Below, in pieces: positions 1,024-61,683 of a stretch of 64,000 bases of DNA. The notes under the pieces were generated by a model. The model did no database searches and was not told the origin of the DNA. It worked only from the letters and a program-made list of their open reading frames with translations. Position 1 is the stretch's first letter. Each line of letters opens with the position of its first letter. Source of the stretch: Candidatus Haiyanarchaeum thermophilum (GTDB taxonomy: Archaea > Nanobdellota > Nanobdellia > JAPDLS01 > Haiyanarchaeaceae). The DNA is taken from NCBI GenBank assembly GCA_025920425.1, contig JAPDLS010000001.1, positions 92,288 to 156,287 of the forward strand, given 5' to 3'. The translations under genes and the position numbers were made by a program.

Positions 1024-1105
1024 CGCCGGGGCTGGGATTCGAACCCAGGAGGGCAAAGCCCACACGCTCTCAAGGCGTGCCCCTTAACCGCTTGGGTACC
1101 CCGGC
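1024..1105 (-). tRNA. tRNA-Ser (anticodon UGA), 82 nt, long variable arm
   Basis: Hand-folded cloverleaf: acceptor GCCGGGG/CCCCGGC, 3-bp D stem, anticodon stem CACGC/GCGTG with loop CTTGAGA, variable stem-loop GGGC-TTT-GCCC, T arm CTGGG-TTCGAAT-CCCAG, discriminator G. Confidence 0.85.
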
Positions 1106-1137: not shown

Positions 1138-2136
1138 CTACTTCCTCTTTTTCCAAACCCTAGGATAAATATCTCTTGGCATTATTACCCTTTCCAGTTT
1201 TGCCACAATTCCTTTCTTAGCCTCGATCAAGCTTTCCCAATCCATCTGAGCTCTAGCTATGGCTACTAATTCTCCCTTCAAGGTCATAATAGCCAATATA
1301 TCATTGATCTCCCAGCCTGACTCAAACTTGACAACTCCAGGAACCATGAGGGGAGCTCCATAAGTGAGTGCCCCCACACTCGTATCACTCACATAAACTT
1401 TTGGTAAGTGGGCTACTGAGAATTCGCATGGGAGAATTAACTCAGCAATTTCTTTCTCATTTCCACTTTCCTTGAAAGAAAGGTAAGCCGCAGCTAATTT
1501 ATGAAGTGTAATAAGCTTTGTATTCTCATTGAATGCTCCAACCTTAGTCCTTCTCAGCTGTACCATATGTGCTCCCACTCCCAATTTTACACCTATGTCA
1601 TGGCATAATTTTCGAATATAGGTGCCTGATTCACATCCGATTTCTAAAAGTACATCTTTCCTCTCCACTTCTAAGATATTGATATAGTAGATCTCCCTTT
1701 CCCTCTCCACTCTTTTTGCTTTGGCCCTTACAGGAGGAATCTGCTTGATCTTGCCAACAAAACCTAGGATGGCTTCCCTCAACTTCTCAAATGGGACTTG
1801 AGAATGAAGATGCATGAGACATACATATTCCTTTCCAGCAAGCAGTAATGGTTTGATCAATTTCGTAGAATTTTGCAAGGCTACTGGTAATACTCCAGTG
1901 ACCTTCAAATCTAAAATTCCAGGATGTCCTGTTTTATCTAAATTAAGGATCCTCTTCACAAAATATGATACATTATGTGAACTTTGACCACTCGGCTTAT
2001 CTATATTCACGAATCCAAACTTCAACATTTCTGTAAGGTTTCTTTCTTCAGGAGGCTTCCCAAAAGAAGGATTCGATTCTTCCTCACGCTTTTCAATTAC
2101 CTCTCTCTTGACTTTCTCAAATGGAAGCAATCCCAT
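1138..2136 (-). CDS. cbf5: tRNA/rRNA pseudouridine synthase Cbf5 (H/ACA RNP catalytic subunit), apparently intron-free
   Basis: TruB-type motif GHPGILD, C-terminal PUA-like region, and conserved position downstream of L14e and cmk. Confidence 0.85.
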   Translation of the reverse strand: MGLLPFEKVKREVIEKREEESNPSFGKPPEERNLTEMLKFGFVNIDKPSGQSSHNVSYFVKRILNLDKTGHPGILDLKVTGVLPVALQNSTKLIKPLLLAGKEYVCLMHLHSQVPFEKLREAILGFVGKIKQIPPVRAKAKRVEREREIYYINILEVERKDVLLEIGCESGTYIRKLCHDIGVKLGVGAHMVQLRRTKVGAFNENTKLITLHKLAAAYLSFKESGNEKEIAELILPCEFSVAHLPKVYVSDTSVGALTYGAPLMVPGVVKFESGWEINDILAIMTLKGELVAIARAQMDWESLIEAKKGIVAKLERVIMPRDIYPRVWKKRK

Positions 2137-10072: not shown

Positions 10073-10434
10073 TTTCCCATCCTCCTCTTATCACTCAAAT
10101 TCAAATCCACTATCATTACTTTAGATGGATGAACTGGATATTTTACCTTTGATCCATCCTTCTTAGTGAGGAAAACGTTATCTATGTAGATCCTATAATT
10201 CTTGAGATCAACTTTCTCCACCGTTCCTATCACCCCTTTGAATTTTCCTCTCATCACTTTCACCTTATCTCCCTTCCTTACTGTAATTCGTTTGATATTG
10301 TATTTCTTCCTAAGTTCCTCACTTACCTTAGCTCTCATCAATTTCCTCCTTATATGAAGAGGAGCAAAGAGCAAGTATTTTCTTTGCTTTCTTGGAAGCT
10401 TGCTCCTCACAAAGCTTTGTGAGAACTTAGCCAT
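10069..10434 (-). CDS. rpl24: 50S ribosomal protein L24 (uL24)
   Basis: KOW motif (RKGDKVKVMRGKFKG) and operon position. Confidence 0.85.
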   Translation of the reverse strand: MAKFSQSFVRSKLPRKQRKYLLFAPLHIRRKLMRAKVSEELRKKYNIKRITVRKGDKVKVMRGKFKGVIGTVEKVDLKNYRIYIDNVFLTKKDGSKVKYPVHPSKVMIVDLNLSDKRRMGK

Positions 10435-10865
10435 TATGCCACCATTAAGGCTATTTTTCCAATGAGCGGGAACCTTTCCACAACCTCCCTAGCTACAGGA
10501 CCCTTTATCATGGTGGCCTGAGGCTCCCCCTTCTTCTCATCCTTTAATATCACACAGGCGTTGTCTTCAAATTTGACTCTCAGACCATTTGGCCTCCTGA
10601 TTTCCTTTTTCTGCCTTATGATCACTGCTTTCACCACCTTATGTCTCATTCCTTCCTCTCCTTCTTTGATGACTACTGTCACTATATCTCCTATGCCTGC
10701 AGTTGCAAGCCTTCTTCTCTTTCCATGATAACCCCTTACAGCGATGATCTGAGCTAATCTCGCTCCAGAGTTGTCAGCTACATTTAAATATGCTCCAACT
10801 GGTAGAGCTTTGGTTATTTTTGCCTTGAGAGGTCTTAAACCAGCAGTTTTTCTACCTGTTCCCAT
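10434..10865 (-). CDS. rpl14: 50S ribosomal protein L14 (uL14)
   Basis: Highly conserved L14 core ([10 protein letters not shown]...). Confidence 0.9.
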
Positions 10866-11190
10866 GCCCTACCACCTGCAGTACCACAAACTTTTTCCCC
10901 CTACTCAGAGGCCTACATTCCCCAATTATTACTTTATCTCCCATCTTGGCGTTGATACATTCAGGGTTATGTGCCATTACCCGGCTTTTTCTCTTTTCAT
11001 ATCTTTCATATTTAGGCAAGTAATGATATCTTATCCATTCGACCACTACTGTCTTACTACTCTTGTCACTTACTACTATTCCTTCGAACAATTTTCCCCG
11101 AATGCTTAACTTTCCATGCCAAGGACATTTCCTATCATTACATTCCTTCGGAGGTGGAAGTAAATTTGGAATTCCTATATTTCTAACCAT
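10852..11190 (-). CDS. rps17: 30S ribosomal protein S17 (uS17)
   Basis: OB-fold S17-like sequence, about 112 aa, operon position. Confidence 0.85.
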
Positions 11191-11471
11191 CTGCTCCTCA
11201 CCCTAGGTTTCATTTTAACCCTTTCCTCGGGCCTCCCTATGAGAGTGAGGCCGTTCACTATTACCTTTTTACCTGAAGGTAGCGTGAATTTAAAGATGGC
11301 ATGAGCTTTTAAAACTTTTTTCTCCCCTCTCTTTGTTTCTATCTTCAATAAGTGTTTGGTTTCATCCACTACTTTTCCTCTAATCCCGATTAAATAACGA
11401 TTTCTCGCCCTAATTACTTCTACCTTTAGTCCTATCAATTCATGCCTCACCAGATCTTTTTCAGAGATCAT
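11175..11471 (-). CDS. rnp1: RNase P protein component 1 (Rpp29/Pop4-like)
   Basis: 98-aa basic protein in the conserved archaeal slot between L29/SUI1 and S17. Confidence 0.7.
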
Positions 11472-11515
11472 CTATTCTTAGCTAAATTTGACTTCGCATT
11501 TTTGAATCTCTGGAA

Positions 11516-11821
11516 TTAGAGTGTTTCGATGATGTCTTCTGGGAATCCCTGCTGCACCAAGAGCTCTTTTACTTTCGCTCTATGATCTCCTCTGAGTTCA
11601 ATTACATCGTCCTTGAACGTCCCTCCACATGCTAATTTGGTCTTCAGGAATTTGAGTAGAGATTTTACATCCACTGTTTTCTTGTCAACACCCTCGATTA
11701 TGGTTACTGTTCTTCCAAATCTCTTCTTTTCAGTTCTTATCCTTATCCTCTCCTTCTCAGCTGAGATCAGTTTACAGGTGCAAAGATCTTTCGGCAATCC
11801 ACAGACTGGACAGTTTTCCAT
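11516..11821 (-). CDS. sui1: translation initiation factor SUI1 (aIF1)
   Basis: SUI1-fold sequence (RTEKKRFGRTVTIIEG...ACGGT...IELRGDH). Confidence 0.8.
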   Translation of the reverse strand: MENCPVCGLPKDLCTCKLISAEKERIRIRTEKKRFGRTVTIIEGVDKKTVDVKSLLKFLKTKLACGGTFKDDVIELRGDHRAKVKELLVQQGFPEDIIETL

Positions 11822-11823
11822 CT

Positions 11824-12030
11824 TTACTTCTTAATCCCCCTTTCCCTAAGCACAGTAAGTATCCTAGCGATGGTTTTTCTAATTTCCCTCACCTTTCCAG
11901 GATTATCAGGAGTCATATGGGCTCTTATCTTGCCCCGAATGTTGAGTAGTTCCAACCTAAGCTCATCTAACTTTTTCTGTAGCTCTTCATTTTTCATTTC
12001 TCTAAGTTTTTTCAAGCTTAGAATTGCCAT
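11824..12030 (-). CDS. rpl29: 50S ribosomal protein L29 (uL29)
   Basis: 68-aa helical protein with L29-like sequence, adjacent to S3. Confidence 0.8.
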   Translation of the reverse strand: MAILSLKKLREMKNEELQKKLDELRLELLNIRGKIRAHMTPDNPGKVREIRKTIARILTVLRERGIKK

Positions 12031-12664
12031 CTGAATCCATTTCCTCCTTTACTTCCTCTACCTTTATCTCCTTTTTGATCTTTACGTTATCTGGAAGCTC
12101 TACATTTGGAGGAAGGATTTTTACCGAAACTCCAATTATGCCTGCAGGAAGAAGAATTTGCTTTTTAGCTTTCAATACATAGTTGTCAGCTATATAACCA
12201 CTTTTCGGCAAGTATCCTCCAGTGAATTTCCAGGAAGCGGCCTTGCTTCCAGGAACCTTTCCACTAATCACTATTTCAGCCCCTATAGCTCCGGCATTCA
12301 AGATGTTCTGGAGGTTTCCATATCCAACAGCCTTGAACTTTTGCACTCCAAATCTAGCCAATTGGAGGCATACCTTCTGAGCCACTATCTGGGGATCCAG
12401 AAATATATTTTCTATTACTTGCACATCTATCTTAGGATTCTCAAGCTTATACTTCTCCTTGAGAATTTGAGTGATTCTCTCTATGTTTTCCCCTCCCCTC
12501 CCAATTACTGCCCCTGGACGGGATGTGTAGATTATTATTCTATGGCCCACAGGAGTACTCTGAATGGAAATGTGAGAATAACCGCGATGCATAAATTCCT
12601 TCTCGAGGAATTCCTTAACCTTAAGTTCCCTGATACTCTCTTCTATGAATTTCCTTTCTATCAC
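12002..12664 (-). CDS. rps3: 30S ribosomal protein S3 (uS3)
   Basis: KH-domain S3-like sequence, 220 aa. Confidence 0.9.
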   Translation of the reverse strand: MIERKFIEESIRELKVKEFLEKEFMHRGYSHISIQSTPVGHRIIIYTSRPGAVIGRGGENIERITQILKEKYKLENPKIDVQVIENIFLDPQIVAQKVCLQLARFGVQKFKAVGYGNLQNILNAGAIGAEIVISGKVPGSKAASWKFTGGYLPKSGYIADNYVLKAKKQILLPAGIIGVSVKILPPNVELPDNVKIKKEIKVEEVKEEMDSDGNSKLEKT

Positions 12665-13116
12665 TTCTCCTCACCTCTTTTATCCTCTGCACTTTCCATC
12701 GCTTTTTCCTCTGTCTTCTTTTCCATCATCTCCTCAACTTCCACTAAGATATGGGTAGATTTTTTAAATCCTAACTTTACTTTCTCCTTAGATACAGCCC
12801 TATTCGCCTCTATTTTTGAGATATATAGCTTCTGCACATCTAATCCCTTAGCCTTAGCATTTGCTACCGCATTCTCTATAACTTTCTTTATATATTTGCA
12901 TTCCTTTACAGGAAATCTTCCAGGTCCAAGCTTACCTCTACGGTGAGGCATGTCTCTCTTGTATCTGAAGAAAGGTATTGCCCTCCTCTTTTCTATTACT
13001 TCGTCTAACAATTTAATTGCCTTAAGTACTTCTTTTCCCCTTATGAATCGACATACATTTACAGAATCTTTGAATGAAATTGGCAAATCCAAACCTTTTG
13101 CAGAAGCCTTCCTCAT
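12661..13116 (-). CDS. rpl22: 50S ribosomal protein L22 (uL22)
   Basis: L22-like sequence between S19 and S3. Confidence 0.85.
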
Positions 13117-13505
13117 TTCACTGCAATTGCCGTACTAGATTTCGTAGCTCCTATTCCAGGAGCGGAGTGCTCCACCTTCTTCCTAGTAAGAGCAAATTCT
13201 CCGAGTCTATGTCCGATCATTTCTGGCCTGATTTCCACATATTTATACTCCTTGCCTGCATGTACTCCGATTGTTACCCCAACCATGCATGGAAGCACGA
13301 TCATATCCCTGCAGTGGGTTCTGATAGGTTTATTTAATCCCTTCCTCCTATATTCCTCTATCTTCTCTAATAGCTTCTTTTGTTCCTTTGTAAGCCCTCT
13401 CAAAAGACTTCTCCTCTCTCTAGCTGGAAGTAGCTTAGCAAACTCATTCAAACTCATCTTCTGAAGTTCTTCCAAAGTGTACCCCCTATATCTGAACTCT
13501 GCCAT
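13113..13505 (-). CDS. rps19: 30S ribosomal protein S19 (uS19)
   Basis: Conserved S19 core ([19 protein letters not shown]). Confidence 0.9.
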
Positions 13506-13506
13506 T

Positions 13507-14223
13507 CTACTTCCTCCTACCAGTCCTCCTAGCCGCTATCGATCCAACCTTAGCTCCGGGTGGAGCTCTTCGGCTTACGGATTTAGACTTTCTTCCGGTC
13601 CTAGCTCTCTTCCCTCCAAATGGATGAGCAGCAGGCACCATAGCAACTCCTCTTACTCTAGGCCAATACTTTCCTCTCCTCTTCATCGCATAGTGTTTGG
13701 CTCCAGCCTTAGTAAATGGCTTTTCAGTTCTTCCACCTCCAGCTACTACGCCAATAGTAGCTAAACAGCTGGGATTAAATGGCTTGAGCTCCCTAGATGG
13801 CAATTGCACTATTACCCTGTCCTTCTCATGGCTTATAATTTGGGCAGAAGTACCACTCGCCCTCACGAGCTTTCCTCCATCCCCAGGTTTGAGCTCTAAA
13901 TTGAATACACTCATTCCATCAGGGATCGAAGAGAGAGGTAGAACATTTCCTGGCTTAAGTTTGGCCCCCACTCCAATCTCCACCTCATCATTTATCCCAA
14001 TCCCGAGAGCAGCTGGAATGTGGATTACTTTGCCATCCTCAAGCCTGATCTTAGCTATTGGAGCAGAATGCAAGGCATCATGAATTAAATCCACAACTTT
14101 GCCCTTAGTTAATCGGTTAATATCTAGCTTTCCGTAGCTTATCTTCACCTTAGCAGCTTTAGCCGGAGCTCTAAACACGTTTTTTCCTTTCCCTCTCCTC
14201 TGCTGTCTCAATCTCTTGGGCAT
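13507..14223 (-). CDS. rpl2: 50S ribosomal protein L2 (uL2)
   Basis: Conserved L2 C-terminal region ([10 protein letters not shown]). Confidence 0.9.
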
Positions 14224-14474
14224 TACAACACACCTAGTTTAGTGGCAATCTCTCTTGCTTTAAATGCTTTGTTGACCCTAATATAAGCCTTTTTCTCTCC
14301 ATGCTTTGTAGTACATACCCTTACTTCATCCACCTTTACACCAAACTGTCTCTCAAACTCTCGCTTAATCTCTATCTTATTCGCTTTCTCATTTACTATG
14401 AAGGTAATAGTATTTTCCTGCTCTATGAGTTTAACACTCTTTTCTGAGATAAGGGGATAAAGCAATGCCTTCAT
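14223..14474 (-). CDS. rpl23: 50S ribosomal protein L23 (uL23)
   Basis: 83-aa L23-like sequence between L4 and L2. Confidence 0.85.
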   Translation of the reverse strand: MKALLYPLISEKSVKLIEQENTITFIVNEKANKIEIKREFERQFGVKVDEVRVCTTKHGEKKAYIRVNKAFKAREIATKLGVL

Positions 14475-14475
14475 C

Positions 14476-15276
14476 TTACATGAATAATTTTTCCTCCTTC
14501 AATTTCTCCATAGCTTTCCTACTCCATATAGTAAGTCTGGGAATTCCTCCTGGACAGAGAATGAGGGGATTTAAATCTTTTACCAGTACTACTTCTACTA
14601 AATTGCGAGCAGCTTTCATGAGATTACATTTCTCACTTACCACTATGAGTGGGGGAACCTTGCGCCTATACTTTCTACCCCTAAATTTTCCTTTACCTGG
14701 CCTTATCTTCCTCTCCTTTCCCCTCAACACCTCATCCAGTACTCCAAATTTTTCCATCACCTGTACGAATTCTTTAGTTTTAGCTATGCTTTCAATATCA
14801 TCTATGATCAGGGGAATTTCTTTCACCTTATCAAGGTGCTTATGTCTTAACTTTAGCAGATCTTTGATTACTGTGGCTGCAAGAGCTGACCTTATAGCTT
14901 TCCTTCTCTCCCTCTTGTTTATTTTTTCATAGATCTTCTTTTCTACCTTGGGAGGATGAGCTTCCCTTCCTCCAACAGTCTGGGGTGCAAAAGCTCCAAC
15001 CCAATAGAATCTTTCTCCCCTTCTCCACATGATCTTCCTTGGAGTTCTGCTGATCCCATATCCATACGTAGTTTTATAGCTCCTCCTCCTTTTGGAGAGA
15101 GAAATTACTTTCTTCTTACCTGCATGGATATCCGTACCTTTTGGGATTCTGGAATGTGAGAGAATTGCTAGAATGCTTCTCATGATCAAATCTTCCCTAT
15201 ACTCCTCTTGGAATTGGGGAGGAAGTTCCATTTCTCCAATTTTCTCCGACTGCAATGAATAAATGTTCGCCTTCAT
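14476..15276 (-). CDS. rpl4: 50S ribosomal protein L4 (uL4)
   Basis: L4-like sequence, 266 aa, between L3 and L23. Confidence 0.85.
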   Translation of the reverse strand: MKANIYSLQSEKIGEMELPPQFQEEYREDLIMRSILAILSHSRIPKGTDIHAGKKKVISLSKRRRSYKTTYGYGISRTPRKIMWRRGERFYWVGAFAPQTVGGREAHPPKVEKKIYEKINKRERRKAIRSALAATVIKDLLKLRHKHLDKVKEIPLIIDDIESIAKTKEFVQVMEKFGVLDEVLRGKERKIRPGKGKFRGRKYRRKVPPLIVVSEKCNLMKAARNLVEVVLVKDLNPLILCPGGIPRLTIWSRKAMEKLKEEKLFM

Positions 15277-15277
15277 C

Positions 15278-16282
15278 TTATGTTACAACAGAAATTATCT
15301 TTGGAGGCACATTTGGCAATTTTCGATTACTTCTCAGAGCAAGCCTCAATCTCACAAGCCTCTTCTTGGCTCCAGGTACAGAGCCCATGAGTACTATATA
15401 TTCATTTCTTAGTATACCGTAATGAGGAAATCCTCCAGCAGGAGTGATGCTTCCACCATCATTCCGTATGTCCAAGATCCATTTGTTGTATTCGCACCTG
15501 CTGAAGAAGCCAAGTTGTCCGGCTAGTGGTACTGTAAAAAGTACCTTTCCAGGTCTCTCAGGTCCCAGAGTTCCTGGCTTCCTTCTTCCCTTCTTTGCTT
15601 TATGGTGAAGGAGCTTAATCCCAAATCTCTTCACAGGGCCTTGGAGACCTTTCCCTTTCGTAACTGCAAACACATCCACCTGTTCCCCAGGCTTGAATAC
15701 ATCACTTACCCTTATGAGTTTTCCCAGAAAATTCTTCAAGAAGTTGAACTTTTCTCTCACGTCCTTACCACCTACAGCCACTTCGAAGATTTCAGGCTTC
15801 TTCTTGATCTTGGTCAACCTAGGGATGGTGACACAGATAGCTCTAACATCAGTATACTCATCAATCTTAGCTTCCACATCCTTCAGCATCTTCTCAACAT
15901 CCTTATTTTGCTTCGGCAATTTTACCTTCCTACTAAGATCCTTAGCTAATTCCTTACTTATTTCAGCATGGATTTCTGTTTCACATACTAAGCCAGTTGT
16001 TTTTTTCTTATAGAATCTAAGCCCCCAAACTAAGATGGGAGGAGTCTCTAGAATTGTGATGGGTACACTGATTTCCATTCCTCGAGTAGGAGAAAACTTT
16101 CTATTGTCTATTATAATGGCATGTCCCATTCCCACTTTATATCCAGCAAATCCGAGGAAGCGCAACTCCTCAACCTTTGGCCAGTTTCTTATCCTTGGAT
16201 AGATCCTCCTAGCTCTAACTCTTGGGTAAAACTGAAGACTTCCTTTATGAGGGGTATGTGCCTTTCCAATCTTATGACCCAT
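15278..16282 (-). CDS. rpl3: 50S ribosomal protein L3 (uL3)
   Basis: L3-like sequence, 334 aa, first gene of the S10-type operon. Confidence 0.9.
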   Translation of the reverse strand: MGHKIGKAHTPHKGSLQFYPRVRARRIYPRIRNWPKVEELRFLGFAGYKVGMGHAIIIDNRKFSPTRGMEISVPITILETPPILVWGLRFYKKKTTGLVCETEIHAEISKELAKDLSRKVKLPKQNKDVEKMLKDVEAKIDEYTDVRAICVTIPRLTKIKKKPEIFEVAVGGKDVREKFNFLKNFLGKLIRVSDVFKPGEQVDVFAVTKGKGLQGPVKRFGIKLLHHKAKKGRRKPGTLGPERPGKVLFTVPLAGQLGFFSRCEYNKWILDIRNDGGSITPAGGFPHYGILRNEYIVLMGSVPGAKKRLVRLRLALRSNRKLPNVPPKIISVVT

Positions 16283-16321
16283 AGTTAATGTGTAAATCCA
16301 TTTAACTTAAAAACTTTAGGA

Positions 16322-17764
16322 TTAACCTTTGACCACACCCAGTGGTACTAGCCTAGCCACCAATTTCCCAATTCCAGCCCTATCACTTACAATGGCCACC
16401 TCATCTATATCTTTATATGCCCCTGGGGCCTCTTCTGCCACGATCTCCCAAGAAGCAGCCCTCACCAATATTCCCTTCCTTTCCAATTCTTGAGCAATTT
16501 CCTTCCCCCTGAACTTCTTTATTGCAGCATTCCTACTCATTTCCCTTCCAGCACCATGAGCAGTGGAATAAAAAGTTTTCCTTGCCTCAGGATTTCCAAC
16601 TAGAACATAACTTGCTGTGCCCATACAACCCGGAATTAGCACTGGTTGACCGGTTCTCCTATATTTTTGAGGCAAATCCTCACTTCCTGGGGGAAAGGCT
16701 CTAGTGGCTCCCTTCCTGTGCACGAATACTTTAACTTTCTCACCATTTACTTCATGATCTTCAATTTTCGCTATGTTATGTGCCACATCGTAGACTACTT
16801 GCAACCCCAAGGCATCCGGTTCCTTTTCAAATACTTGTTTGAAGCTTTCCCTTGTCCAATGCAAAATCATCTGCCTATTGCACCAAGCATAATTAGCTGC
16901 CGCACACATTGCAGCGAAGTAATTTTCAGCTATTTCACTTTTGGAAGGAGCATAAACCAGCTCTCTGTCAGGAAGCTTAGCTATCACTTCATGATATTTC
17001 CTCTCCATCTCTCTCAAGTAATCAGAACATACTTGATGCCCTAAGCCCCTCGAGCCTGTATGGATCATTATCATCACTTGTCCCTCTTCCTCTATTCCAA
17101 ATACTTTAGCTACTTCCCTATTGTAGATTTTGTCCACCTTTTGAACTTCTAGGAAATGATTTCCAGCCCCCAAGCTTCCAAGCTGGGGTAAACCTCTACT
17201 CTTAGCGGTGCTAGATACCTTTGATGGATCTGCTTGAGACATCCCTCCATTTTCCTCAAGATGCTCGAGATCCTCCTTCCAACCAAATCCATGCTCCACA
17301 GCCCACTTAGCTCCGAGCTGGAGCACTTGATCTAGTTCAGTGGAAGATACTCTTATCTTCCCACCCTTCCCCACACCAGATGGTATATTCCTAAAGATGA
17401 TCTCAAGCAATTCCCTAAGCCTAGGGCGGACATCTTCTTCTCTTAAATTACTTCTCACTAGGCGGACTCCACAGTTGATATCATACCCTATTCCTCCTGG
17501 GCTAATACAACCTTCCTCATAATCTATAGCTGCTACCCCTCCAATGGGAAAGCCATAGCCCTCATGACCGTCAGGTAAAGTAATGGAGTATTTGTAGATT
17601 CCAGGCAAACATGCAACTCCAGCAGCCTGAATCAAAGTCCTATCCTGCTTCATTTTCTCCAGAAGCTTAGGACTAGCTATGATGAGGGCTGGTACTCTCA
17701 TTCCCGGAATACTCCCTTTAGGAATTTCCCACTCTATGTCGCTTATTTTCTTGAGCTCAACCAT
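16322..17764 (-). CDS. rtcB: RNA-splicing ligase RtcB (3'-phosphate/5'-hydroxyl ligase), no intein
   Basis: Conserved RtcB blocks GYDINCGVR, GAGNHFLEV, HTGSRGLG, STAHGAGR in a 480-aa protein. Confidence 0.9.
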   Translation of the reverse strand: MVELKKISDIEWEIPKGSIPGMRVPALIIASPKLLEKMKQDRTLIQAAGVACLPGIYKYSITLPDGHEGYGFPIGGVAAIDYEEGCISPGGIGYDINCGVRLVRSNLREEDVRPRLRELLEIIFRNIPSGVGKGGKIRVSSTELDQVLQLGAKWAVEHGFGWKEDLEHLEENGGMSQADPSKVSSTAKSRGLPQLGSLGAGNHFLEVQKVDKIYNREVAKVFGIEEEGQVMIMIHTGSRGLGHQVCSDYLREMERKYHEVIAKLPDRELVYAPSKSEIAENYFAAMCAAANYAWCNRQMILHWTRESFKQVFEKEPDALGLQVVYDVAHNIAKIEDHEVNGEKVKVFVHRKGATRAFPPGSEDLPQKYRRTGQPVLIPGCMGTASYVLVGNPEARKTFYSTAHGAGREMSRNAAIKKFRGKEIAQELERKGILVRAASWEIVAEEAPGAYKDIDEVAIVSDRAGIGKLVARLVPLGVVKG

Positions 17765-17796
17765 AAAACTACTAATTGAATTCCTTTTTAAAATTT

Positions 17797-18249
17797 TTAG
17801 ATATCTAACACTACATGAACGTAGAATTTTCCATCCTTTTTGCCAACTCTCATGCCATGATAGGTCACAGCTTTAACTACAGCGCGTCCTCTATGTTTCC
17901 TTGGATCGAACTCTTCTCCGAGCAGCACAGCAGAGACCTTAAGCTTATTTCCCTCCTTCCATATTTTAGATACCTTCACTTCAGAGAAGAATATATTTTC
18001 CGAATCATTGATGATCAGAATTTTTTCGAGGAAATCGTACAGAAGACTTTCATTATCTTCCCCTTCTGCTACGATTTCCCTCCTCACCTTCTTCTCTACT
18101 TCATGCAGATCAATCATTACGCTTTGCATAGCTATAGCTGCCCTCTCAAAGGCCTGCTCGAGAGAGTTTCCAAGAGCTTCGAATTCGACATCTGCTGTGT
18201 GTTCCAGAAATTTTATGTACTTAGACTCCATTTTTATATACGAAGACAC
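17797..18249 (-). CDS. archease (RtcB activator)
   Basis: N-terminal FLEHTADVEF and C-terminal KAVTYHGMRV archease signatures; directly upstream of rtcB on the same strand. Confidence 0.8.
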   Translation of the reverse strand: MSSYIKMESKYIKFLEHTADVEFEALGNSLEQAFERAAIAMQSVMIDLHEVEKKVRREIVAEGEDNESLLYDFLEKILIINDSENIFFSEVKVSKIWKEGNKLKVSAVLLGEEFDPRKHRGRAVVKAVTYHGMRVGKKDGKFYVHVVLDI

Positions 18250-18273
18250 AATAATTATTTTAAATAGTTTGGA

Positions 18274-19134
18274 ATGGTATGGATTCAGAGGTTTGATCCA
18301 TGGAGGAGTACCTTATGTACCTGTCCTTTCAAATACTCACTTAATATCTATACAGGATGTGCTCATGCATGCATCTATTGTTATATTACTTCTTATATAA
18401 GAGATGGATTCAAACCGAGGCCGAAGAGGGGATTGATAGGCGAATTGGAAAGGGAACTTCAGCGCTTTCATGCTAGAAGAAAAGTGGTAAGCATTTCCAA
18501 TAGCTCAGACCCTTATCAACCTATAGAAAAGAAACTAGAGCTAACTCGAAAGTGCTTGGAGCTTTTCAAGCGATTCGGATGGAAAATACTAATCGTTACG
18601 AAGAGCAATTTGATAACAAGAGACCTAGATCTCTTAAAGGAAGATTGTGTAGTGAGTGTTACAATCACTACCCTGGATTCAAAGCTGGCTCACATACTTG
18701 AGCCCAATGCTCCATCACCTTCCCTTAGAATAGATGCTATAAAATTGCTTAAACTCTACCATATCCCCGTATGTGTAAGAATAGATCCCCTAATTCCCTT
18801 CATCAATGATGATTGGGAAAAGCTTGAGAAATTAGTTAAGATTCTAGCAAAGCTAAAAGTGGACCATGTGATTTCTTCTACCTACAAAGCAAGAGGAGAC
18901 AGCCTAGCTAGATTAAGCCTGAACTTTCCTGAGAGATACATTAAATTATTGAAGCTCTACTTGATGGGTGAAAGAATCTCCAATTATTATTATCTCCCTA
19001 GGGATCTGAGATATAGACTAATGAGTAGGCTTAAGCAGCTCTGTGAGGAATATGGTCTAAGCTTTGCCTCCTGCAGAGAAGGCTTTAGGGAGCTCAACGA
19101 TAATATATGTGACGGGAGCTTTCTCCTCTCATAG
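18274..19134 (+). CDS. radical SAM protein, spore-photoproduct-lyase-like family (COG1533)
   Basis: CxxxCxxC cluster inside SLNIYTGCAHACIYCY, the characteristic N-terminal signature of this family. Confidence 0.65.
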   Translation: MVWIQRFDPWRSTLCTCPFKYSLNIYTGCAHACIYCYITSYIRDGFKPRPKRGLIGELERELQRFHARRKVVSISNSSDPYQPIEKKLELTRKCLELFKRFGWKILIVTKSNLITRDLDLLKEDCVVSVTITTLDSKLAHILEPNAPSPSLRIDAIKLLKLYHIPVCVRIDPLIPFINDDWEKLEKLVKILAKLKVDHVISSTYKARGDSLARLSLNFPERYIKLLKLYLMGERISNYYYLPRDLRYRLMSRLKQLCEEYGLSFASCREGFRELNDNICDGSFLLS

Positions 19135-19699
19135 ATTTTTTATCCAAAAAATTGTGAACTATAGTAATGCATTGACTGGAGAAGTAGGGTAGTGGGCCCA
19201 ACGAGATAGTATCTTTACAAAATCGCTTTGCAATTTTCTTCTCCCTCCTCGGGAGTCCTAGATGGTCTCCCAAGATGAATACAGGATCTTCCCCAATTTC
19301 CACATCATCTATCAATTTTCCCCTTTCATCCAACAAATAAATGTTTCTTCCACCATGCTCCTCAACTACTTCCTTAAAACCCTTCTTCTCTATATAGATT
19401 CCTGGAAATGCTAAGACCTTTCTTCCCTTCTTATATTTCCAGAGAACATATCTGAGGAGATCTCCTACATCCTTCTTTGAAATCGGCATTTCCTCATGGC
19501 TTATGAACTCAATATGTTTTGGAGGATCGGGGGGGCCGTTGAGGATGATATGAAGATTTACATCCATTCGCATCGCGTTCGAGATGAAAAAGGCGGCGAT
19601 GATGCTATGGCAGACTATGTCCAGCCTTCCTGCCTCCATTAGGCTCTTGAAATTTCCACTTGTCCTGCCATGTTCTGAGAAAAGGATAAATTCTCTCAT
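19094..19699 (-). CDS. trmY: tRNA (pseudouridine54-N1)-methyltransferase TrmY (SPOUT, DUF358)
   Basis: Strong resemblance to the TrmY core (GRLDIVCHSIIAAFFISNAMRMDVNLHIILNGPPDPP). Confidence 0.7.
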   Translation of the reverse strand: MREFILFSEHGRTSGNFKSLMEAGRLDIVCHSIIAAFFISNAMRMDVNLHIILNGPPDPPKHIEFISHEEMPISKKDVGDLLRYVLWKYKKGRKVLAFPGIYIEKKGFKEVVEEHGGRNIYLLDERGKLIDDVEIGEDPVFILGDHLGLPRREKKIAKRFCKDTISLGPLPYFSSQCITIVHNFLDKKSMRGESSRHIYYR

Positions 19700-23506: not shown

Positions 23507-23588
23507 GCCGGGGTACCCAAGCGGTTAAGGGGCACGCCTGGAGAGCGTGTGGGCTTTGCCCTCCTGGGTTCGAATCCCAGCCCCGGCG
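23507..23588 (+). tRNA. tRNA-Ser (anticodon GGA), 82 nt
   Basis: Same cloverleaf as the gene at 1024..1105; anticodon loop CTGGAGA; differs from the UGA copy only at position 34. Confidence 0.85.
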
Positions 23589-32099: not shown

Positions 32100-34301
32100 T
32101 TACTCCTCAATAATCCCCTTTCTCTTTCTAATCTGTTTAATGATTTCTTCTTCTAGGGAAGTGGGGAGTTTCTCAAATCTAGAGTCAACTAGAAACCATG
32201 CCCCCCTTCCTTCAGTAGTGCTCCTCAGCTCATCTGTGAATCCAAACATTTCAGCTACAGGCAGGTCGCAGATGAGAATACCTCTTCCATCTTCCTCTTT
32301 TACCTCTAGTAGTTGTCCCCTTCTACTCTGGATGATCTTTATTACTTTCCCACTGTACTCGGGAGGAAGATCTATCCTGATCCTCTGGATAGGCTCCATT
32401 AGGATCGGTTTGGCTTGGAGGATAGCATCCCTAATGGCACTCTTCACAGCAGGAATTACCTGAGCAGGTCCCCTATGAATTGAATCCTCATGGAGTACAC
32501 AATGGACTAGTTTAACTTTGATTCCGAAACACTTTTCATGTGCGAGGGGGCCCCTCTTCATAGCATCCTCGAAAGCAGTCAAACACATTTCCATCACTTC
32601 ACCTATATGCACTACTCCTCTAGTTTCATCGATGAATATATTTCTTTCATAGATGTGCTTTACCCTTTTAGCTTCTTCCCTATCCATTCCAGCTTCAACC
32701 AATTTGCTCCAAAGTTCCTCAGTTTTTCGCTTGATTTTTCCTTCAGGTATATCTCCCCGTACGATGGCTTCATAAACCCCTTTTTCCAGAGGTTCAACCA
32801 CTATATAGAACTTGTTATGTTTATTTGGGGATTTACCCTCTACCACAGGGCTTTTATCGGTAACGCTTTCTCTATATACCACTATGGGGTTAGACTTGGT
32901 TATGGGAATTCCTCGCTCCACACTTATTTTATATTCGACTATTTCTAGGTGAAGTTCTCCTAGCCCAGAGACAAGGTTTTCTCCTGTCTCTGGATTAATC
33001 TCTACCTTGATAGTAGGATCTTCTTTTGCAATGTCATTGAGGGCTTCGATGAGCTTAGGGAGATCCCCTGGTCTTGTGGGTTCAATGGCCTTAGTTACTA
33101 CTGGCTCAAAGATATGCTTGATCTCCTCAAATGGGGTTACAGGTTCTCTGCTCACAGTTTCTCCAGCATTTATTCCCTTCAGCCCGATCAATCCACATAT
33201 GTTTCCAGCATATACTTCATCGATAGGGTAACGATGAGCACCTCTCCATACTAATATCTGTTGAACTTTCTGCACGCTCTTGGCTGAGTTAAGATATACT
33301 TCCTCGCCCCGTGTCAACTTCCCAGCGAAGAGACGTCCTACAGCAATTTCTCCAGCTTGGGGATCGACGATAATCTTAGACACGCAGAAAATTGGTTTGA
33401 AGTTATGGTCACATGCTAGCAGAGCTTTTCCCACATCTGAATCTAGATCTCCACTCCAGATCCTTGGAATCCTGTACTTTTGAGCTTCGACAGGACTTGG
33501 TAGATGCTTTATTATCATTTCTAGCAAAATTTTGTGGAGAGGAGCTTTCTTCGCAAATTCCTCAATCTTCCCCTCTCTATACGCCTGGATTACATCCTTA
33601 AAGGAGAGGTTAGTTTTTTGCATGTAAGGATAACTTAGCGCCCATTTTTCCAGAGCAGAACCAAAGGCTACTGTACCTTCATTTACCCTTAACTGCCATT
33701 TCTCTTTAAATGGGGAGGGGGCGAGGGCAGCTATTAGTTCGTTGACATTCATTATTACCTTGATGAACCTCTCCTGAATTTTCTCAGGAGGTAATTTTAG
33801 TTCGTTGATTAATCTATCTACTTTATTCAAAAAGAGCACAGGTTTTACCCCTTCTTTAAGAGATTGCCTCAACACCGTCTCGGTTTGAGGCATTACTCCT
33901 TCCACAGCATCGATGACGAGGAGAGCACCATCTATAATCCTAACAGCCCTAGTTACATGCCCCCCAAAATCTACATGTCCTGGAGTATCTACTAAGTTTA
34001 TTAAATATTCTTCCCCATCTATCTCAAAAACAATATTGGCATCCGCACTCTTAATCGTCATCTGCCTCTCTTGCTCGATCTTTACATAGTCCAATGCTAA
34101 CTTTTTTCCAGCTACTTCCCAAGAGAGCATGCCAGCTCCAGCTAAAAGGGAGTCGCACGTAGTGGTCTCGATGGGTTCTAAACTTGAAGTTTAGAACTTT
34201 CCATGATCTACGTGCGCGATAGTTCCTATGTTTCTAATCCTCTCCTTTTCCTTCATCAATCTGTTTATCTTTTGAATGAGCTCCTCCTCCTTTGTTCCCA
34301 T
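32100..34301 (-). CDS. fusA: translation elongation factor 2 (aEF-2) in two exons, 34301..34199 and 34168..32100, separated by a 30-nt bulge-helix-bulge intron
   Basis: Exon 1 encodes [35 protein letters not shown]; exon 2 continues [12 protein letters not shown]...DTPGHVDF; between them lie 30 nt with an in-frame TAA that fold as a BHB motif; joined product is 723 aa. Confidence 0.85.
34169..34198 (-). other. predicted archaeal BHB intron inside the EF-2 P-loop coding region
   Basis: Transcript-sense 5'-AGUUCUAAACUUCAAGUUUAGAACCCAUCG-3'; central helix AUGG/CCAU, 3-nt bulges AAA and CGA, 10-bp inner helix with UCA loop; cutting after the 2nd nt of each bulge restores the frame. Confidence 0.75.
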
Positions 34302-41532: not shown

Positions 41533-43022
41533 GAGATTCGCCTCAATCCGATTTTTTCCAGCATCCTTTCTAACTTCTCATCAGAGATACTTGGCTCAGT
41601 TGAGACTTCGCACATTAGAGCTAAGTGTTTCCTCAGTCCTACGTTAATCCCTTCTGGAGTATGAGCAGGGCAGATTCTTCCATAATGTGTGGGATGAACA
41701 TCCCTAGCCTCGAAGTTTTCCTTTCCACTCGTGAGCAGAGATACAACTCTTCTCAATTGGGAGACGAGAATGTATTGATTCAACCGGTTAAGGGCTTGAC
41801 AGATCCCAGTCCTCTCCCCAACCCATTCCCCAGTTGCCATAGCACTTCGTATCCTACTAGTCAGTTGCTGAGCTCTTACTACAGTTTCAACCGATGGAAT
41901 TTTTCCTCTCCTTATGATCCTTTCCAAACTATACTTGATATCACTTACAAATACCCTAAACACGACTCTAAAAAGAGATTCCATCAGATCTCCACATAGC
42001 CTCAATCTCTTATTGGCATAGTGATCCTTATCATCCTCACTCAAACGATTTGTAGCTACCATGAGCAATTTCTTAATGGCCCTTCCCAAATAATATGCCT
42101 TGAATATCCTATCCTTCCTCTCAGATCCAAGGTGTGGAAGAAAGAACTTATCTAACATTTCAATACTTCTCTGGATCTTTACTGACTTTTCTTGAGTAAT
42201 TCCTATCTTCCTTCCAATGAATTCCAAAGCATCTTCCCTTGATCTAATATCAGCAGTGTGGTAAAGATTAAGATAGATCTCATTGAAGAATTCTTCCCCT
42301 CCACATAACTCTAGGATTTCCTTATCCTTCGTCACTCCGAGTGCTTTCATTATGATTGGGAAAGGTATCCTATGAACCCTAGCAAAGCTTACGAAGATAA
42401 TTCCATCTTTTCTCCTTTCTATCTCATGCACTACTGCCTGTCTAGCTTCTGAGAATATCTTGGCCACATAGGGAAATGGTCCATCCTTCCTCTCCACGAA
42501 GGGCTTATTCGGGGCCAGATCTTCTACAGTTACGATTAATCTTTCAGTACCATTGATGATAAAGTACCCTCCAGGATCATCTGGATCCTCTCCTAAGCTG
42601 ATAAGTTCCTCTCTACTTTTTCCGTATAAGTGGCAGTACTTGGATTTGAGGAGAATAGGGATAGATCCTATATACACGTGTCTGTTGGTCTCAAGCTCCA
42701 CATCATCTTTGATGAGGGTCATTTCCATGAAGAGAGGAGCTTCGTAAGTGAGATCTCTAAGTCTAGCTTCCATTGGATAAATAACTCTTTTAGTCCCATC
42801 AGCTTCTATAATTGAGGGAGGCTCCACATATACTCTGCCGAATTTTATCTTAAGGCTTTCACACCCTGGAGGAAGAATATCAGAAGCTACTTCCCCTATC
42901 TCATCCACCACTCTCTGAATTCCAAACTCCATGAACTTATTGAAAGATTCAATGTTATGACTAACCAGGCCTCTACTTTTGAAGTAAGCATCCAACAATA
43001 CTTTTTGGACGTGCTTATTCAA
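41529..43022 (-). CDS. rpoB2: DNA-directed RNA polymerase subunit B'' (N-terminal part of a split B subunit)
   Basis: 497-aa N-terminal homolog; its stop overlaps the rpoB' start by 4 nt. Confidence 0.9.
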
Positions 43023-43278
43023 CTATCACCACCCTATAATATTTAGTTTCTCCAGCGGTAGGGGAACTACGAGTAATTTCTATCACATCTCCAGGCTTAG
43101 CCCCAAGCTTCCGTACGACAGGATCCGTGATTAGAATCCTCGGGAGATCTGCGAGTTTGGCATTATATTTGGTTAGCAACTCTCTCTTCTCCTCCTCGCT
43201 AATGATCCTATGTCTAGGTACGAGTCTGTGGGTAAAGATGTCAAATTCTTCTTTATCTCTCTCCTCTATCATCTTCAT
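43015..43278 (-). CDS. rpoH: DNA-directed RNA polymerase subunit H (Rpb5-like)
   Basis: About 85-aa Rpb5-like sequence ([10 protein letters not shown]...[12 protein letters not shown]); the ORF-track N-terminus runs into tRNA-Lys, so the true start is MKM at 43278 or MIE at 43272. Confidence 0.8.
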
Positions 43279-43400
43279 GGGCCGTGCGGGATTCGAACCC
43301 GCGACCACTGGGTCTCTTCATCCTCAGGTTCAGAGCTTTTATCTTGGGATAAAAGCCCAGTGCTCTTGGTAAGCTTTCTACCAGGCTGAGCTAACGGCCC
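43278..43400 (-). tRNA. tRNA-Lys (anticodon UUU) with two predicted introns: about 11-13 nt in the D-loop and about 36 nt at canonical position 37/38
   Basis: Removing both insertions gives a standard 73-nt tRNA-Lys (acceptor GGGCCGT, D stem GCTC/GAGC, anticodon stem CTGGG/CCCAG with loop CTTTTAA); canonical intron has a CUUU/GAAG central helix. Confidence 0.7.
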
Positions 43401-43539
43401 GAGATCAGAAGATATTCTGTCATCATTAAAGGGGGAAATACTCATAGCATTTTGTATGATAATAGAATATTTTTTAAATTTTACGGTAGCTAGATTCGTG
43501 AAAATCATTTTAAATGTGGTGAGTTATGATTTTTTTATA

Positions 43540-44507: not shown

Positions 44508-45521
44508 ATGGAGAAGATAAGGATAAGTGGGAGAGTCTTGGAAAAGCTAAAGAAGGCACATTATGGAGTCTTCGGTCACTCGGCTGTGGAGATATGCCTA
44601 TGGAATAAGAAGGCGATAAGGGGAGAGGGAGTATGTTATAAGCGCAAATTCTTTGGAATAGAAACACATAGGTGTATGCAGTTCTCTCCAGCAGCTGCCT
44701 ATTGTGAGAATAGATGCATCTATTGTTGGAGGTTTTCAGAGTTCTATAGAATTTTGAATATGCCTGAGGAAGCTGTAGATGATCCGCAAGAGATAATTGA
44801 GAATTTAATGAGAGAAAGGAGAAGATTACTCTCAGGGTTTTTTGGAAATGTGAAGGCAAATAAGGAGCTTTTGAAGGAGGCAATGATTCCCAGCCACTTT
44901 GCTATTTCCCTTATAGGAGAGCCTACACTTTATCCCAAGCTTCCAAAGATGATCAAGTATTTGAAGTCCCTTCCCCATACGAGATCTGTTTTCTTGGTTA
45001 CCAATGGGCAGGAGCCACAAATGCTTAAGAGACTCGAAGCTGAGAGAGCCCTACCTACTCAACTTTATCTCTCTTTAAATGCTGGCTCAATGGAGAAGTT
45101 TAGAGAGATTAATAGACCCTTGCTTCCCGATGCATGGGAGAGATTCTGGGAAAGCTTGGAGTTCCTGAGAAAAAATGAAGTGAGAAGCGTGATTAGGGTT
45201 ACACTTATTAAAAGTCTTAATACTAATGAGGAAGAGCTTGAGAAGATGTGTGAATTGATAAAGGTAGCAAATCCCAACTTCGTGGAAGTGAAGTCTTACA
45301 TGCATTTGGGCTATTCCACCCGGAGACTCAGTAAGACTAACATGCTTACTCAACTTGAGTTGAAAAAATGCATAAATAAAATGTTAAAGCATCTTCGGTT
45401 TTTCAAATACATGGATGAACAGGAGGAATCTAGAGTCATAATCCTTCAGAACGTTGAAAGATTTGTGGAACGGTGGATTCTTAGACCTGAAGAGTCAACT
45501 CTCCATAAATTCAACTTATAA
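44508..45521 (+). CDS. taw1: tRNA 4-demethylwyosine synthase Taw1/TYW1 (radical SAM)
   Basis: GIETHRCMQ...CENRCIYCWR radical SAM region and the SLIGEPTLYP block typical of TYW1 homologs. Confidence 0.75.
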   Translation: MEKIRISGRVLEKLKKAHYGVFGHSAVEICLWNKKAIRGEGVCYKRKFFGIETHRCMQFSPAAAYCENRCIYCWRFSEFYRILNMPEEAVDDPQEIIENLMRERRRLLSGFFGNVKANKELLKEAMIPSHFAISLIGEPTLYPKLPKMIKYLKSLPHTRSVFLVTNGQEPQMLKRLEAERALPTQLYLSLNAGSMEKFREINRPLLPDAWERFWESLEFLRKNEVRSVIRVTLIKSLNTNEEELEKMCELIKVANPNFVEVKSYMHLGYSTRRLSKTNMLTQLELKKCINKMLKHLRFFKYMDEQEESRVIILQNVERFVERWILRPEESTLHKFNL

Positions 45522-45684: not shown

Positions 45685-45804
45685 TCCTGCGGGCCGGATT
45701 TGAACCGGCGATCTTCCGGTAACCGCTGAGTTTTGGTCATCGATACCAATACAGTTACTCCCAACTCTACAGCCGGACGCGTTACCGGGCTACGCTACCG
45801 CAGG
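45685..45804 (-). tRNA. tRNA-Tyr (anticodon GUA) with a canonical-position intron of about 45 nt
   Basis: C1:G72 acceptor pair, D stem GCGT/ACGC, anticodon stem TCCGG/CCGGA with loop CTGTAGA after removing the insertion, T arm GCCGG-TTCAAAT-CCGGC, discriminator A. Confidence 0.8.
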
Positions 45805-50083: not shown

Positions 50084-50089
50084 TTTTCA

Positions 50090-50177
50090 TGGACCGGCCG
50101 GGACTCGAACCCGGAGCCTTCTCCACTTCCGAGTACCCTCTGCGAAGGAGACGCTCTACCAGTTGAGCTACCGGCCC
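50090..50177 (-). tRNA. tRNA-Ala (anticodon CGC) with a 15-nt intron at position 37/38
   Basis: G3:U70 wobble pair in the acceptor stem, anticodon stem TCTCC/GGAGA, intron with UUCG/CGGA central helix, T arm CCGGG-TTCGAGT-CCCGG. Confidence 0.8.
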
Positions 50178-50197
50178 ACTAATGAAATTAATCTTCA

Positions 50198-58354: not shown

Positions 58355-58453
58355 TGGGCCCGGTGGGATTTGAACCCACGACCTACGGTTCTCTTAGATG
58401 TGCGGAACTCGGTCTTATAAGACCGTCGCTCCACCAGGCTAAGCTACGGGCCC
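58355..58453 (-). tRNA. tRNA-Ile with predicted anticodon UAU and a 25-nt intron at position 37/38
   Basis: Acceptor GGGCCCG/CGGGCCC, discriminator A, anticodon stem ACGGT/ACCGT, 5-nt variable loop; intron has a perfect CUUA/UAAG central helix with 3-nt bulges, leaving loop CUUAUAA. Confidence 0.7.
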
Positions 58454-58487: not shown

Positions 58488-59465
58488 TTACTCAAGTCTA
58501 CATTCATAGATCGTCTTATCCTCCCTAATCCTCAAAAATACTGGAGCCCTCAATTTCTTGTCCTTTGTAATTTCCATGCATTTCACCTCACATATATATC
58601 TTGGCTCAACGAAGACCATCTTTTCAGCCATGTTTGGTTCCTCTTCGAAGATCTCAAATGGGTTTTTATCGATTGTAATTGGTTCGAGCATTTCTTTGAG
58701 CTTAGCTAGATCACTCTCACTAAAACCGGTTCCTACTCTCCCAACATATCTCAGCTTTCCCTCATCCAAACATCCGAGCACTAGGGCTCCTAAGTATTTC
58801 TCCCGAATCCCTTCTCCTCTCGTAAAGCCACAGATCACACAGTCCACAGTCTTCGTAGCCTTTATCTTAAGCCAGTACTTAGATCTCTCTCCAATCAGAT
58901 AGGGACTGTCTATCTTCTTAGCCATTATTCCCTCGAAACCTTTCTTTGCCACTTCTTCAAAAAATTTGATCCCACCTCCTATTATGAATCTCGTAAGCTT
59001 CACCCTTTCTCCTTCAGTTACACATTCTCCTAAAATTCTCTTCCTCTCGATAAGTGGGAACTCAAGGAGAGATTTTCCATCTTTATAGAGAATATCAAAT
59101 ATGAAGAGGGTAGCCGGGCTCAATTTGGAGAGAAGTTCTATCCTTAGCTCATCACTTGTGTGTTCCCTCTCCTGCAATTTCCAAAAGTTTGGCTTCTCCC
59201 CATCCAGCACTACGATTTCTCCATCTAGAATTCCTTTATTTCCTAGGAAGGCATTAGGAAGCTCTTTTAATATTTCTGGATATCTCTTCTCAAAGAAGAG
59301 GCCTCTCCTATTGAGGAACTTAACTCTTTCCTTCTCTTTATCTATGTATACGATGGTTCTAGTTCCATCGTATTTTATTTCAAATAAATACTGCTCAGAA
59401 TCAAAAGGCCTAGCTGAAAATGCTAGCATTGGCTTTATCTTCTGATCGAAAAGATCTCCTTCCAT
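58488..59465 (-). CDS. ATP-dependent DNA ligase, small LigD/LigC-like ligase domain
   Basis: Motif I KxDGxR (EIKYDGTR) in a protein of only 325 aa; immediately downstream of the Ku gene. Confidence 0.75.
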   Translation of the reverse strand: MEGDLFDQKIKPMLAFSARPFDSEQYLFEIKYDGTRTIVYIDKEKERVKFLNRRGLFFEKRYPEILKELPNAFLGNKGILDGEIVVLDGEKPNFWKLQEREHTSDELRIELLSKLSPATLFIFDILYKDGKSLLEFPLIERKRILGECVTEGERVKLTRFIIGGGIKFFEEVAKKGFEGIMAKKIDSPYLIGERSKYWLKIKATKTVDCVICGFTRGEGIREKYLGALVLGCLDEGKLRYVGRVGTGFSESDLAKLKEMLEPITIDKNPFEIFEEEPNMAEKMVFVEPRYICEVKCMEITKDKKLRAPVFLRIREDKTIYECRLE

Positions 59466-61601: not shown

Positions 61602-61683
61602 GCCGGGGTACCCAAGCGGTTAAGGGGCACGCCTGCTAAGCGTGTGGGCTTTGCCCTCCTGGGTTCGAATCCCAGCCCCGGCG
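61602..61683 (+). tRNA. tRNA-Ser (anticodon GCU), 82 nt
   Basis: Same body as the other two tRNA-Ser genes; anticodon loop CTGCTAA; differs only at positions 35-37. Confidence 0.85.

Follow-up and report, generated by a model that had tools for sequence, protein, structure and literature searches.

Our analysis suggests that the archease and RtcB genes lying just upstream of a ribosomal-protein gene cluster in this DPANN archaeon are an ordinary archease-RtcB pair, and that their position next to the L3-led cluster is probably a product of genome compaction and loose clustering rather than of a shared operon. The evidence comes from the proteins themselves, from the signals that precede the genes and from the arrangement of RtcB loci in other genomes. 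The DNA analysed was a single stretch of 64,000 nt (the window; GC content about 40%), for which we used the gene table of the Pfam-annotated public record of the identical contig (GCA_025920595.1), a MAG of a DPANN archaeon.

An archease-RtcB pair next to the L3-led cluster

The gene for the RtcB 3'-phosphate/5'-OH RNA ligase occupies positions 16322..17764 of the minus strand and encodes a protein of 480 residues, named 'RtcB family protein' in public records. Pfam model PF01139 covers it in full (model positions 1-426 of 426, E 2.2e-175), and it aligns end to end with P. horikoshii RtcB (1UC2/4DWQ; 678 bits, residues 2-480), with no intein in the aligned residues 2-480. When compared with the list of catalytic residues of the P. 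horikoshii enzyme (PMC10630183), all five Mn2+ ligands (Asp95, Cys98, His203, His234 and His329 in P. horikoshii numbering) are identical in the window protein, as is the equivalent of His404, the residue that accepts GMP and becomes guanylylated. Judged by its sequence, the window RtcB is a full-length, catalytically intact ligase that would be expected to be active. A geometry like that of the bulge-helix-bulge (BHB) structure, at 17338..17368 inside the RtcB coding region, was attributed to chance: the MFE fold of this segment forms no BHB (z -1.33), and the candidate was rejected because removal of these 31 nt would cause a frameshift in a region that is colinear with P. horikoshii RtcB.

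Archease is encoded on the same strand by the ORF at 17797..18249, which matches PF01951 (E 1.7e-42) and, over its full length, the P. horikoshii archease structure 4N2P (E 1.6e-29). Mutagenesis has shown that His9, Asp12, Lys117, Asp141 and the C-terminal residue are needed for RtcB activation (Desai et al., 2014, PMC3973293); in the alignment to 4N2P, the equivalents of the four named residues and a C-terminal Ile are kept in the window protein, within the motifs HTAD and KAVTYH and the terminal DI. The gene that the earlier note had placed at 17797..18249 is thus real, but its start needs correction. GTG 18249 is merely the first possible start codon, in frame and 18 nt upstream of ATG 18231, and the latter is probably the true start, since the public gene call (144 aa) begins there, the Pfam and PDB alignments open just past it and the distance to a TATA-like box upstream is 33 nt. 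The archease gene would then span 17797..18231 (minus strand) and encode 144 residues.

Read along the minus strand, the gene order is archease, RtcB, L3, L4, L23, L2, S19, L22, S3, L29, SUI1, Rpp29, S17, L14 and onward. Archease and RtcB are separated by 32 nt and RtcB and L3 by 39 nt, the L3 ATG being at 16282. The L3-led ribosomal-protein cluster extends from L3 (PF00297, E 4e-73) to L14 over 10434..16282 (minus strand) and continues downstream, with ORFs that are tightly packed or overlap. The Pfam matches, the alignments and the two short gaps bear out the earlier description of RtcB and archease as same-strand neighbours placed just upstream of this cluster. The cluster also has Rpp29, an RNase P subunit, and SUI1/aIF1 embedded in it, and Cbf5 is found further downstream (1138..2136).

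Linkage of RtcB to L3 among 51 sampled loci

RtcB loci were gathered from scans of genome and metagenome contigs and from exact-protein look-ups, giving 51 loci with enough flanking sequence, which include several near-duplicates and do not represent 51 independent lineages. Contig scans with RtcB yielded distant relatives only (at most 65% identity over the full length); the close relatives came from the exact-protein look-ups. Archease lies directly upstream of RtcB on the same strand at 29 of the 51 loci, from both archaea and bacteria, directly downstream at two and elsewhere within 5 kb at eight.

Linkage of RtcB to L3 is far rarer: it occurs at three of the 51 loci, all from the closest relatives, namely L077 (RtcB 94% identical) and L078 and L080 (82%), and is absent from the other 48. 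L077 has the order archease-RtcB-L3-L4-L23, as in the window. In L078 and L080, RtcB and L3 are parted by an ORF of 157 aa and by a spacer of 171 nt that has its own TATA-like box, and archease is not upstream of RtcB. The 157-aa ORF has no Pfam match even at E up to 1, nor does it match the window archease by tblastn, and we rejected the idea that it is a displaced, divergent archease. Somewhat further away (L079 and L081, RtcB 77-78% identical), unrelated genes follow RtcB and an oppositely oriented phosphoesterase gene splits archease from it; the downstream neighbour at 73% identity (L083) is Hjc, on the other strand, and the order at 72% (L085) is aIF2-beta, archease, RtcB, a small ORF and UbiA. 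Where RtcB is 65% identical or less, no locus has L3, L4 or L2 in the surrounding 5 kb. A link to the L3 operon is accordingly not conserved across lineages (3/51 loci), and in this sample of sequences the RtcB-L3 junction is a lineage-specific arrangement, found within one narrow lineage of DPANN archaea. The adjacency is nonetheless retained in three lineages of species rank, where weak selection is possible.

Promoter-like signals before archease, RtcB and L3

As the host is an archaeon, a sigma-70 promoter/terminator scanner was left out and a TATA/SD statistic was built from the window instead. A TATA-like hexamer was defined as TTTWAA, TTTTTA or TTTATA starting between -36 and -24 from the start codon, and its frequency before genes with an upstream gap of at least 20 nt (gapped genes, n=33) was compared with that before packed, operon-internal genes (n=29), a control internal to the window. 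The hexamer is a simple AT-rich motif, and no more than about half of the gapped genes (17 of 33) have it; it precedes one of the 29 operon-internal genes and occurs at 2.2% of random positions. Its occurrences peak sharply at -33 to -28. Conversely, an SD-like match of at least 4 nt is found before none of the 17 TATA genes and before 18 of the 29 operon-internal ones. We read this pattern as the division, familiar in archaea, of transcripts into first cistrons that are leaderless and internal cistrons that are led by an SD.

Archease, RtcB and L3 all belong to the class that has a TATA-like box and no SD-like sequence. The archease motif (TTTAAA, 18259..18264, minus strand) starts 33 nt before ATG 18231 and is kept in L077. 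That of RtcB (TTTTAAA, 17787..17793, minus strand) lies within the archease-RtcB gap, starts 29 nt before the RtcB ATG (-29/-28) and is also kept in L077, although the spacer behind it differs there. The third (TTTTTAA, 16307..16313, minus strand) lies in the RtcB-L3 gap and starts 31 nt before the L3 ATG (-31/-30); in L078 and L080 an equivalent motif occurs some 33 nt ahead of the L3 ATG, amid unrelated flanking sequence. An operon-internal junction would be expected to show no promoter signal and to carry an SD, and the L3 junction has the opposite combination. A run of five T residues (16309..16313) beginning 9 nt past the RtcB stop codon could serve as an archaeal oligo-T terminator. Taken together, these signals point to three separate transcription starts, for archease, RtcB and L3, and RtcB may have a start of its own, apart from that of archease. 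As the combination of a TATA-like box with no SD is the signature of first cistrons in the window, co-transcription of the pair with the ribosomal operon is left unsupported. Some read-through from archease and RtcB into L3 is possible, since the genes are only 32 and 39 nt apart and internal promoters can occur within archaeal operons.

Predicted substrates of the ligase in the window

The most notable feature of the window is an intron in the gene for EF-2, which the earlier note had also reported and which our analysis corroborates. The EF-2 reading frame opens with MGTK and runs to AHVDHGK, where it is interrupted by a 30-nt insert with an in-frame stop (34169..34198, minus strand), so that the P-loop is split between AHVDHGK and TT. 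The MFE fold of 78 nt around this site takes the textbook form of an hBHBh' motif (-24.1 kcal/mol, z -4.78), with a 4-bp central helix (AUGG/CCAU), 3-nt bulges (AAA and CGA) on opposite strands, a 10-bp intron hairpin and an outer helix formed between the exons (UC/GA plus 8 bp). If each bulge were cut after its second nucleotide, 34198..34169 would be removed and the two exons (34301..34199 and 34168..32100, minus strand) joined into a reading frame for a 723-aa EF-2, with a predicted junction, GATCATGGAA followed by AGACCACTACG, that is identical in sequence to that of intronless relatives. We predict this intron to be a substrate of RtcB.

Comparison with relatives lends further weight to the intron. 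The 94% relative shares it, with differences confined to the hairpin loop and its closing pair (U-A to U.G), and the next relative (L088, EF-2 85% identical) has an intact EF-2 gene with no intron. Relative to the intronless gene, synonymous changes in the window (GCT to GCG, GTT to GTA and a compensatory pair, CAT to CAC with ACA to ACG) complete the exon-exon helix. Public gene callers report only a truncated EF-2 ORF of 676 aa, and since they do so on nine contigs from several sources, an assembly error is not the explanation.

ARAGORN, run with its intron search, found eight tRNAs in the window, four of them with inserts. The earlier note had counted four intron-containing tRNAs; three are clear and the fourth is probable. 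The clear cases, all on the minus strand, are tRNA-Tyr(GUA) with a 46-nt intron (45685..45804), tRNA-Ala(CGC), which has the G3:U70 pair, with a 15-nt intron (50089..50178), and tRNA-Ile(UAU) with a 25-nt intron (58355..58453). The three genes score 56-60 bits against the Rfam tRNA model and each is interrupted at 37/38. A 4-bp central helix with 3-nt bulges can be drawn by eye for all three, that of tRNA-Ile (CUUA/UAAG) being perfect; the MFE folds of short fragments did not reproduce these motifs, and the three tRNA BHBs stand on inspection by eye. The fourth, at 43278..43400 (minus strand), is probably a multiply interrupted tRNA gene: its acceptor stem and T arm are perfect, it has no match to the Rfam tRNA model even at E up to 1, and it is read as Leu-GAG by ARAGORN and as Lys-UUU by a manual parse.

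As a means of discovering further introns, a scan of the whole window for BHB geometry was discarded. It returned hundreds of matches, and the strong ones (outer and inner helices of at least 5 bp) were no commoner than in shuffled sequence (35 in the real window, 23-39 in dinucleotide shuffles). A gene for the splicing endonuclease (EndA) was not found among the roughly 36 window proteins scanned against Pfam and presumably lies elsewhere in the genome. The small ATP-dependent ligase encoded at 58488..59465 was considered as an exon ligase and set aside: it combines an adenylation domain of the DNA-ligase type with an OB domain and adjoins Ku, with which it makes a DNA-repair pair.

Discussion

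The biochemistry of the family, together with the intact catalytic residues, makes RtcB and archease the expected ligase for ends left by the splicing endonuclease, in agreement with the earlier note. By analogy with the other members of the family, ligation would proceed as follows. The endonuclease would leave 2',3'-cyclic-phosphate and 5'-OH ends; RtcB would be guanylylated on His404, using GTP and Mn2+, with archease promoting or speeding the activation steps; and the GMP would then be moved to the 3'-phosphate, which the 5'-OH would attack, joining the ends. The tRNA and EF-2 introns of the window are the predicted substrates. With regard to expression, we propose that archease, RtcB and the L3 operon would each be transcribed from a TATA-box promoter of their own, giving leaderless transcripts, and with separate predicted promoters the juxtaposition of these genes would reflect the compaction of the genome and a loose tendency of information-processing genes to cluster.

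The earlier note had seen in the clustering a hint that the ligase is co-regulated with the translation apparatus. In its fullest form, this would mean that the archease-RtcB pair came by recruitment to head the ribosomal-protein operon and is co-transcribed or co-regulated with it, such that the supply of ligase tracks ribosome synthesis. The common strand and very short gaps fit this proposal, as does the retention of the gene order in the 94% and 82% relatives; the presence of Rpp29 and SUI1 within the same cluster, the proximity of the pair to aIF2-beta in one 72% relative and the several ligase substrates within the window can also be cited in its favour. It is nonetheless unlikely, as each of the three genes has a TATA-like box and no SD before it, a T5 run comes shortly after the RtcB stop codon, the 82% relatives interpose an extra ORF and a TATA-bearing spacer and lack archease upstream, unrelated genes follow RtcB in relatives whose RtcB is 72-78% identical, and the linkage is missing from 48 of the 51 loci. 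We are similarly doubtful that RtcB, by virtue of its place at the head of the cluster, adds some coupling through read-through.

A narrower proposal is that RtcB was kept beside L3 because the EF-2 mRNA needs ligation, which would make translation itself dependent on RtcB. The canonical BHB intron in the P-loop of EF-2, shared by the window and the 94% relative, gives this proposal its appeal, but the 82% relative L078 (sample ERZ584659) has the RtcB-L3 linkage, and L088, from the same sample, has an EF-2 gene with no intron. The shared sample and the matching divergence suggest that L078 and L088 belong to one genome. That a relative lacking the EF-2 intron has the linkage indicates that the intron did not drive the gene order, and we hold this proposal to be very improbable. 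We give equally little credence to a main role of the window RtcB in RNA repair rather than splicing, along the lines of bacterial rtcBA or PrfH-RtcB systems. Bacterial RtcB enzymes do repair RNA, but the window protein is of the archaeal type, closely matched to the P. horikoshii splicing ligase (678 bits), and has archease as its partner; RtcA, RtcR and PrfH were not found among the neighbouring genes, and the genome contains obligatory splicing substrates. An ordinary archease-RtcB pair that happens to adjoin the ribosomal-protein cluster thus remains the reading we favour.

This pair closely resembles the archease-rtcB 'tRNA splicing operon' described in P. horikoshii and elsewhere among the archaea and bacteria (Desai et al., 2014, PMC3973293; Desai et al., 2015, PMC4604427). 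Both proteins, their order, the common strand and the tiny gap are the same, as are all the residues that RtcB uses in catalysis and those that are essential in archease. The window differs in having a TATA-like box within the 32-nt gap, such that the two genes may be transcribed separately, and in that the pair abuts the L3 operon, which is not the case at 48 of the 51 sampled loci. With the E. coli rtcBA RNA-repair operon, it shares the ligase family; the window, however, has neither the RtcA cyclase nor the RtcR regulator nearby, and the partner of RtcB is archease in an archaeal splicing context.

Archaeal ribosomal-protein clusters carry embedded genes for RNA processing and for translation factors, and an RNA ligase at the edge of such a cluster fits the pattern of Rpp29, SUI1 and Cbf5. 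The embedded genes, however, are widely conserved in place and have no promoter-like signals of their own in the window, whereas RtcB and archease lie at the edge, have such signals and are linked to the cluster in only a few close relatives. The pair itself is already well known and annotated, and its place beside the ribosomal operon is probably a local accident of gene order.

The EF-2 intron has parallels in the BHB intron of crenarchaeal cbf5 pre-mRNA (Watanabe, 2002; Yokobori, 2009, PMC2738675) and in the RtcB-dependent splicing of XBP1 mRNA in metazoa (PMC4282640). In each case an endonuclease of the tRNA type cuts a protein-coding mRNA and RtcB joins it again, as is implied for EF-2; the differences lie in the gene, which is here EF-2 and is split in the P-loop, in the host, a DPANN archaeon, and in the intron, which is only 30 nt long. 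Our literature search found no published description of a BHB intron in EF-2, and the literature cites protein-coding BHB introns only for crenarchaeal cbf5. As far as these searches show, it would be the first BHB intron in any mRNA but that of crenarchaeal cbf5, and also the first to interrupt a core translation factor.

What the sequences suggest, then, is that this organism keeps a complete and intact ligation module, as any substrate of the splicing endonuclease needs. We consider it rather likely that the role of this module extends beyond tRNA splicing and that, in this lineage, the production of EF-2 would require the endonuclease together with RtcB and archease to excise the intron and join the exons in vivo. 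If the EF-2 mRNA intron is true, archaeal mRNA splicing extends to an essential translation factor and to the DPANN archaea.

Additional RNA genes and an intron in EF-2

The EF-2 gene of the window (32100..34301, minus strand) contains a 30-nt intron (34169..34198) with the canonical bulge-helix-bulge (BHB), the motif cut by the archaeal splicing endonuclease; it interrupts the P-loop codons (AHVDHGK|TT) and carries an in-frame stop. Comparison with relatives (including the regions L089:1326-1515 and L087:2997-3155) showed that the intron is also present in the closest relative, whose RtcB is 94% identical to that of the window, with differences limited to the hairpin loop and its closing pair, and is missing from the EF-2 of the next relative (85% identical in EF-2). 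The outer helix of the BHB is completed by synonymous and compensatory changes in the exons. Our literature search found no published account of a BHB intron in EF-2. No NCBI source carries the EF-2 protein of the window, and the gene is thus possibly treated there as a pseudogene. The known BHB intron of Crenarchaeota lies in Cbf5, whereas the Cbf5 gene of the window (1138..2136, minus strand) is uninterrupted. Other tRNA/rRNA-modification genes encode a TrmY-like Methyltrn_RNA_2 protein (19094..19699, minus strand) and a Taw1/Tyw1-like wyosine radical-SAM enzyme (44508..45521, plus strand).

The acceptor stem and T arm of a tRNA-like gene at 43278..43400 (minus strand) are perfect, and the gene has no match to the Rfam tRNA model, even at E-values up to 1. 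One or two inserts seemingly have to be removed from it, one of them possibly located in the D arm. ARAGORN assigns it to Leu(GAG), as opposed to Lys(UUU) by manual parsing. An ORF called at 43015..43308 overlaps at its start with the 3' part of this gene. Directly upstream of this disrupted tRNA is a weak match to the C/D-box sRNA sR9 of Rfam (43403..43452, minus strand; 18.7 bits, which is less than the gathering score), in which UGAUGA and CUGA boxes can be discerned. Three tRNA-Ser genes (1024..1105, minus strand; 23507..23588, plus strand; 61602..61683, plus strand), with the anticodons UGA, GGA and GCU, share identical 82-nt bodies apart from the anticodon itself and nucleotide 37. This suggests either that they were duplicated recently and changed their anticodons, or that they evolve in concert.

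Neighbouring genes and start signals

Immediately upstream of an intron-containing tRNA-Ile is a region (58488..60260, minus strand) encoding a Ku homologue (59466..60260; PF02735, E 1.5e-50) followed directly by a short, 325-aa ATP-dependent DNA ligase (58488..59465), which looks like an NHEJ-type pair in a small DPANN genome. In L078 and L080, loci of relatives with 82% identical RtcB, a conserved 157-aa ORF (L078:6225-6698 and L080:2804-3277) with its own TATA-like box and no Pfam match is placed between RtcB and L3; the window has no counterpart.

Two classes of genes are clearly separated throughout the window: those in which a TATA-like box lies about 30 nt 5' of the ATG and which have no Shine-Dalgarno (SD)-like sequence, which from these signals look leaderless, and operon-internal, tightly packed genes with GGAGG-type SD-like sequences. 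This split, exemplified upstream of 16282, 17764, 19699, 48830, 60260 and 61524, helps to delimit transcription units in this genome.
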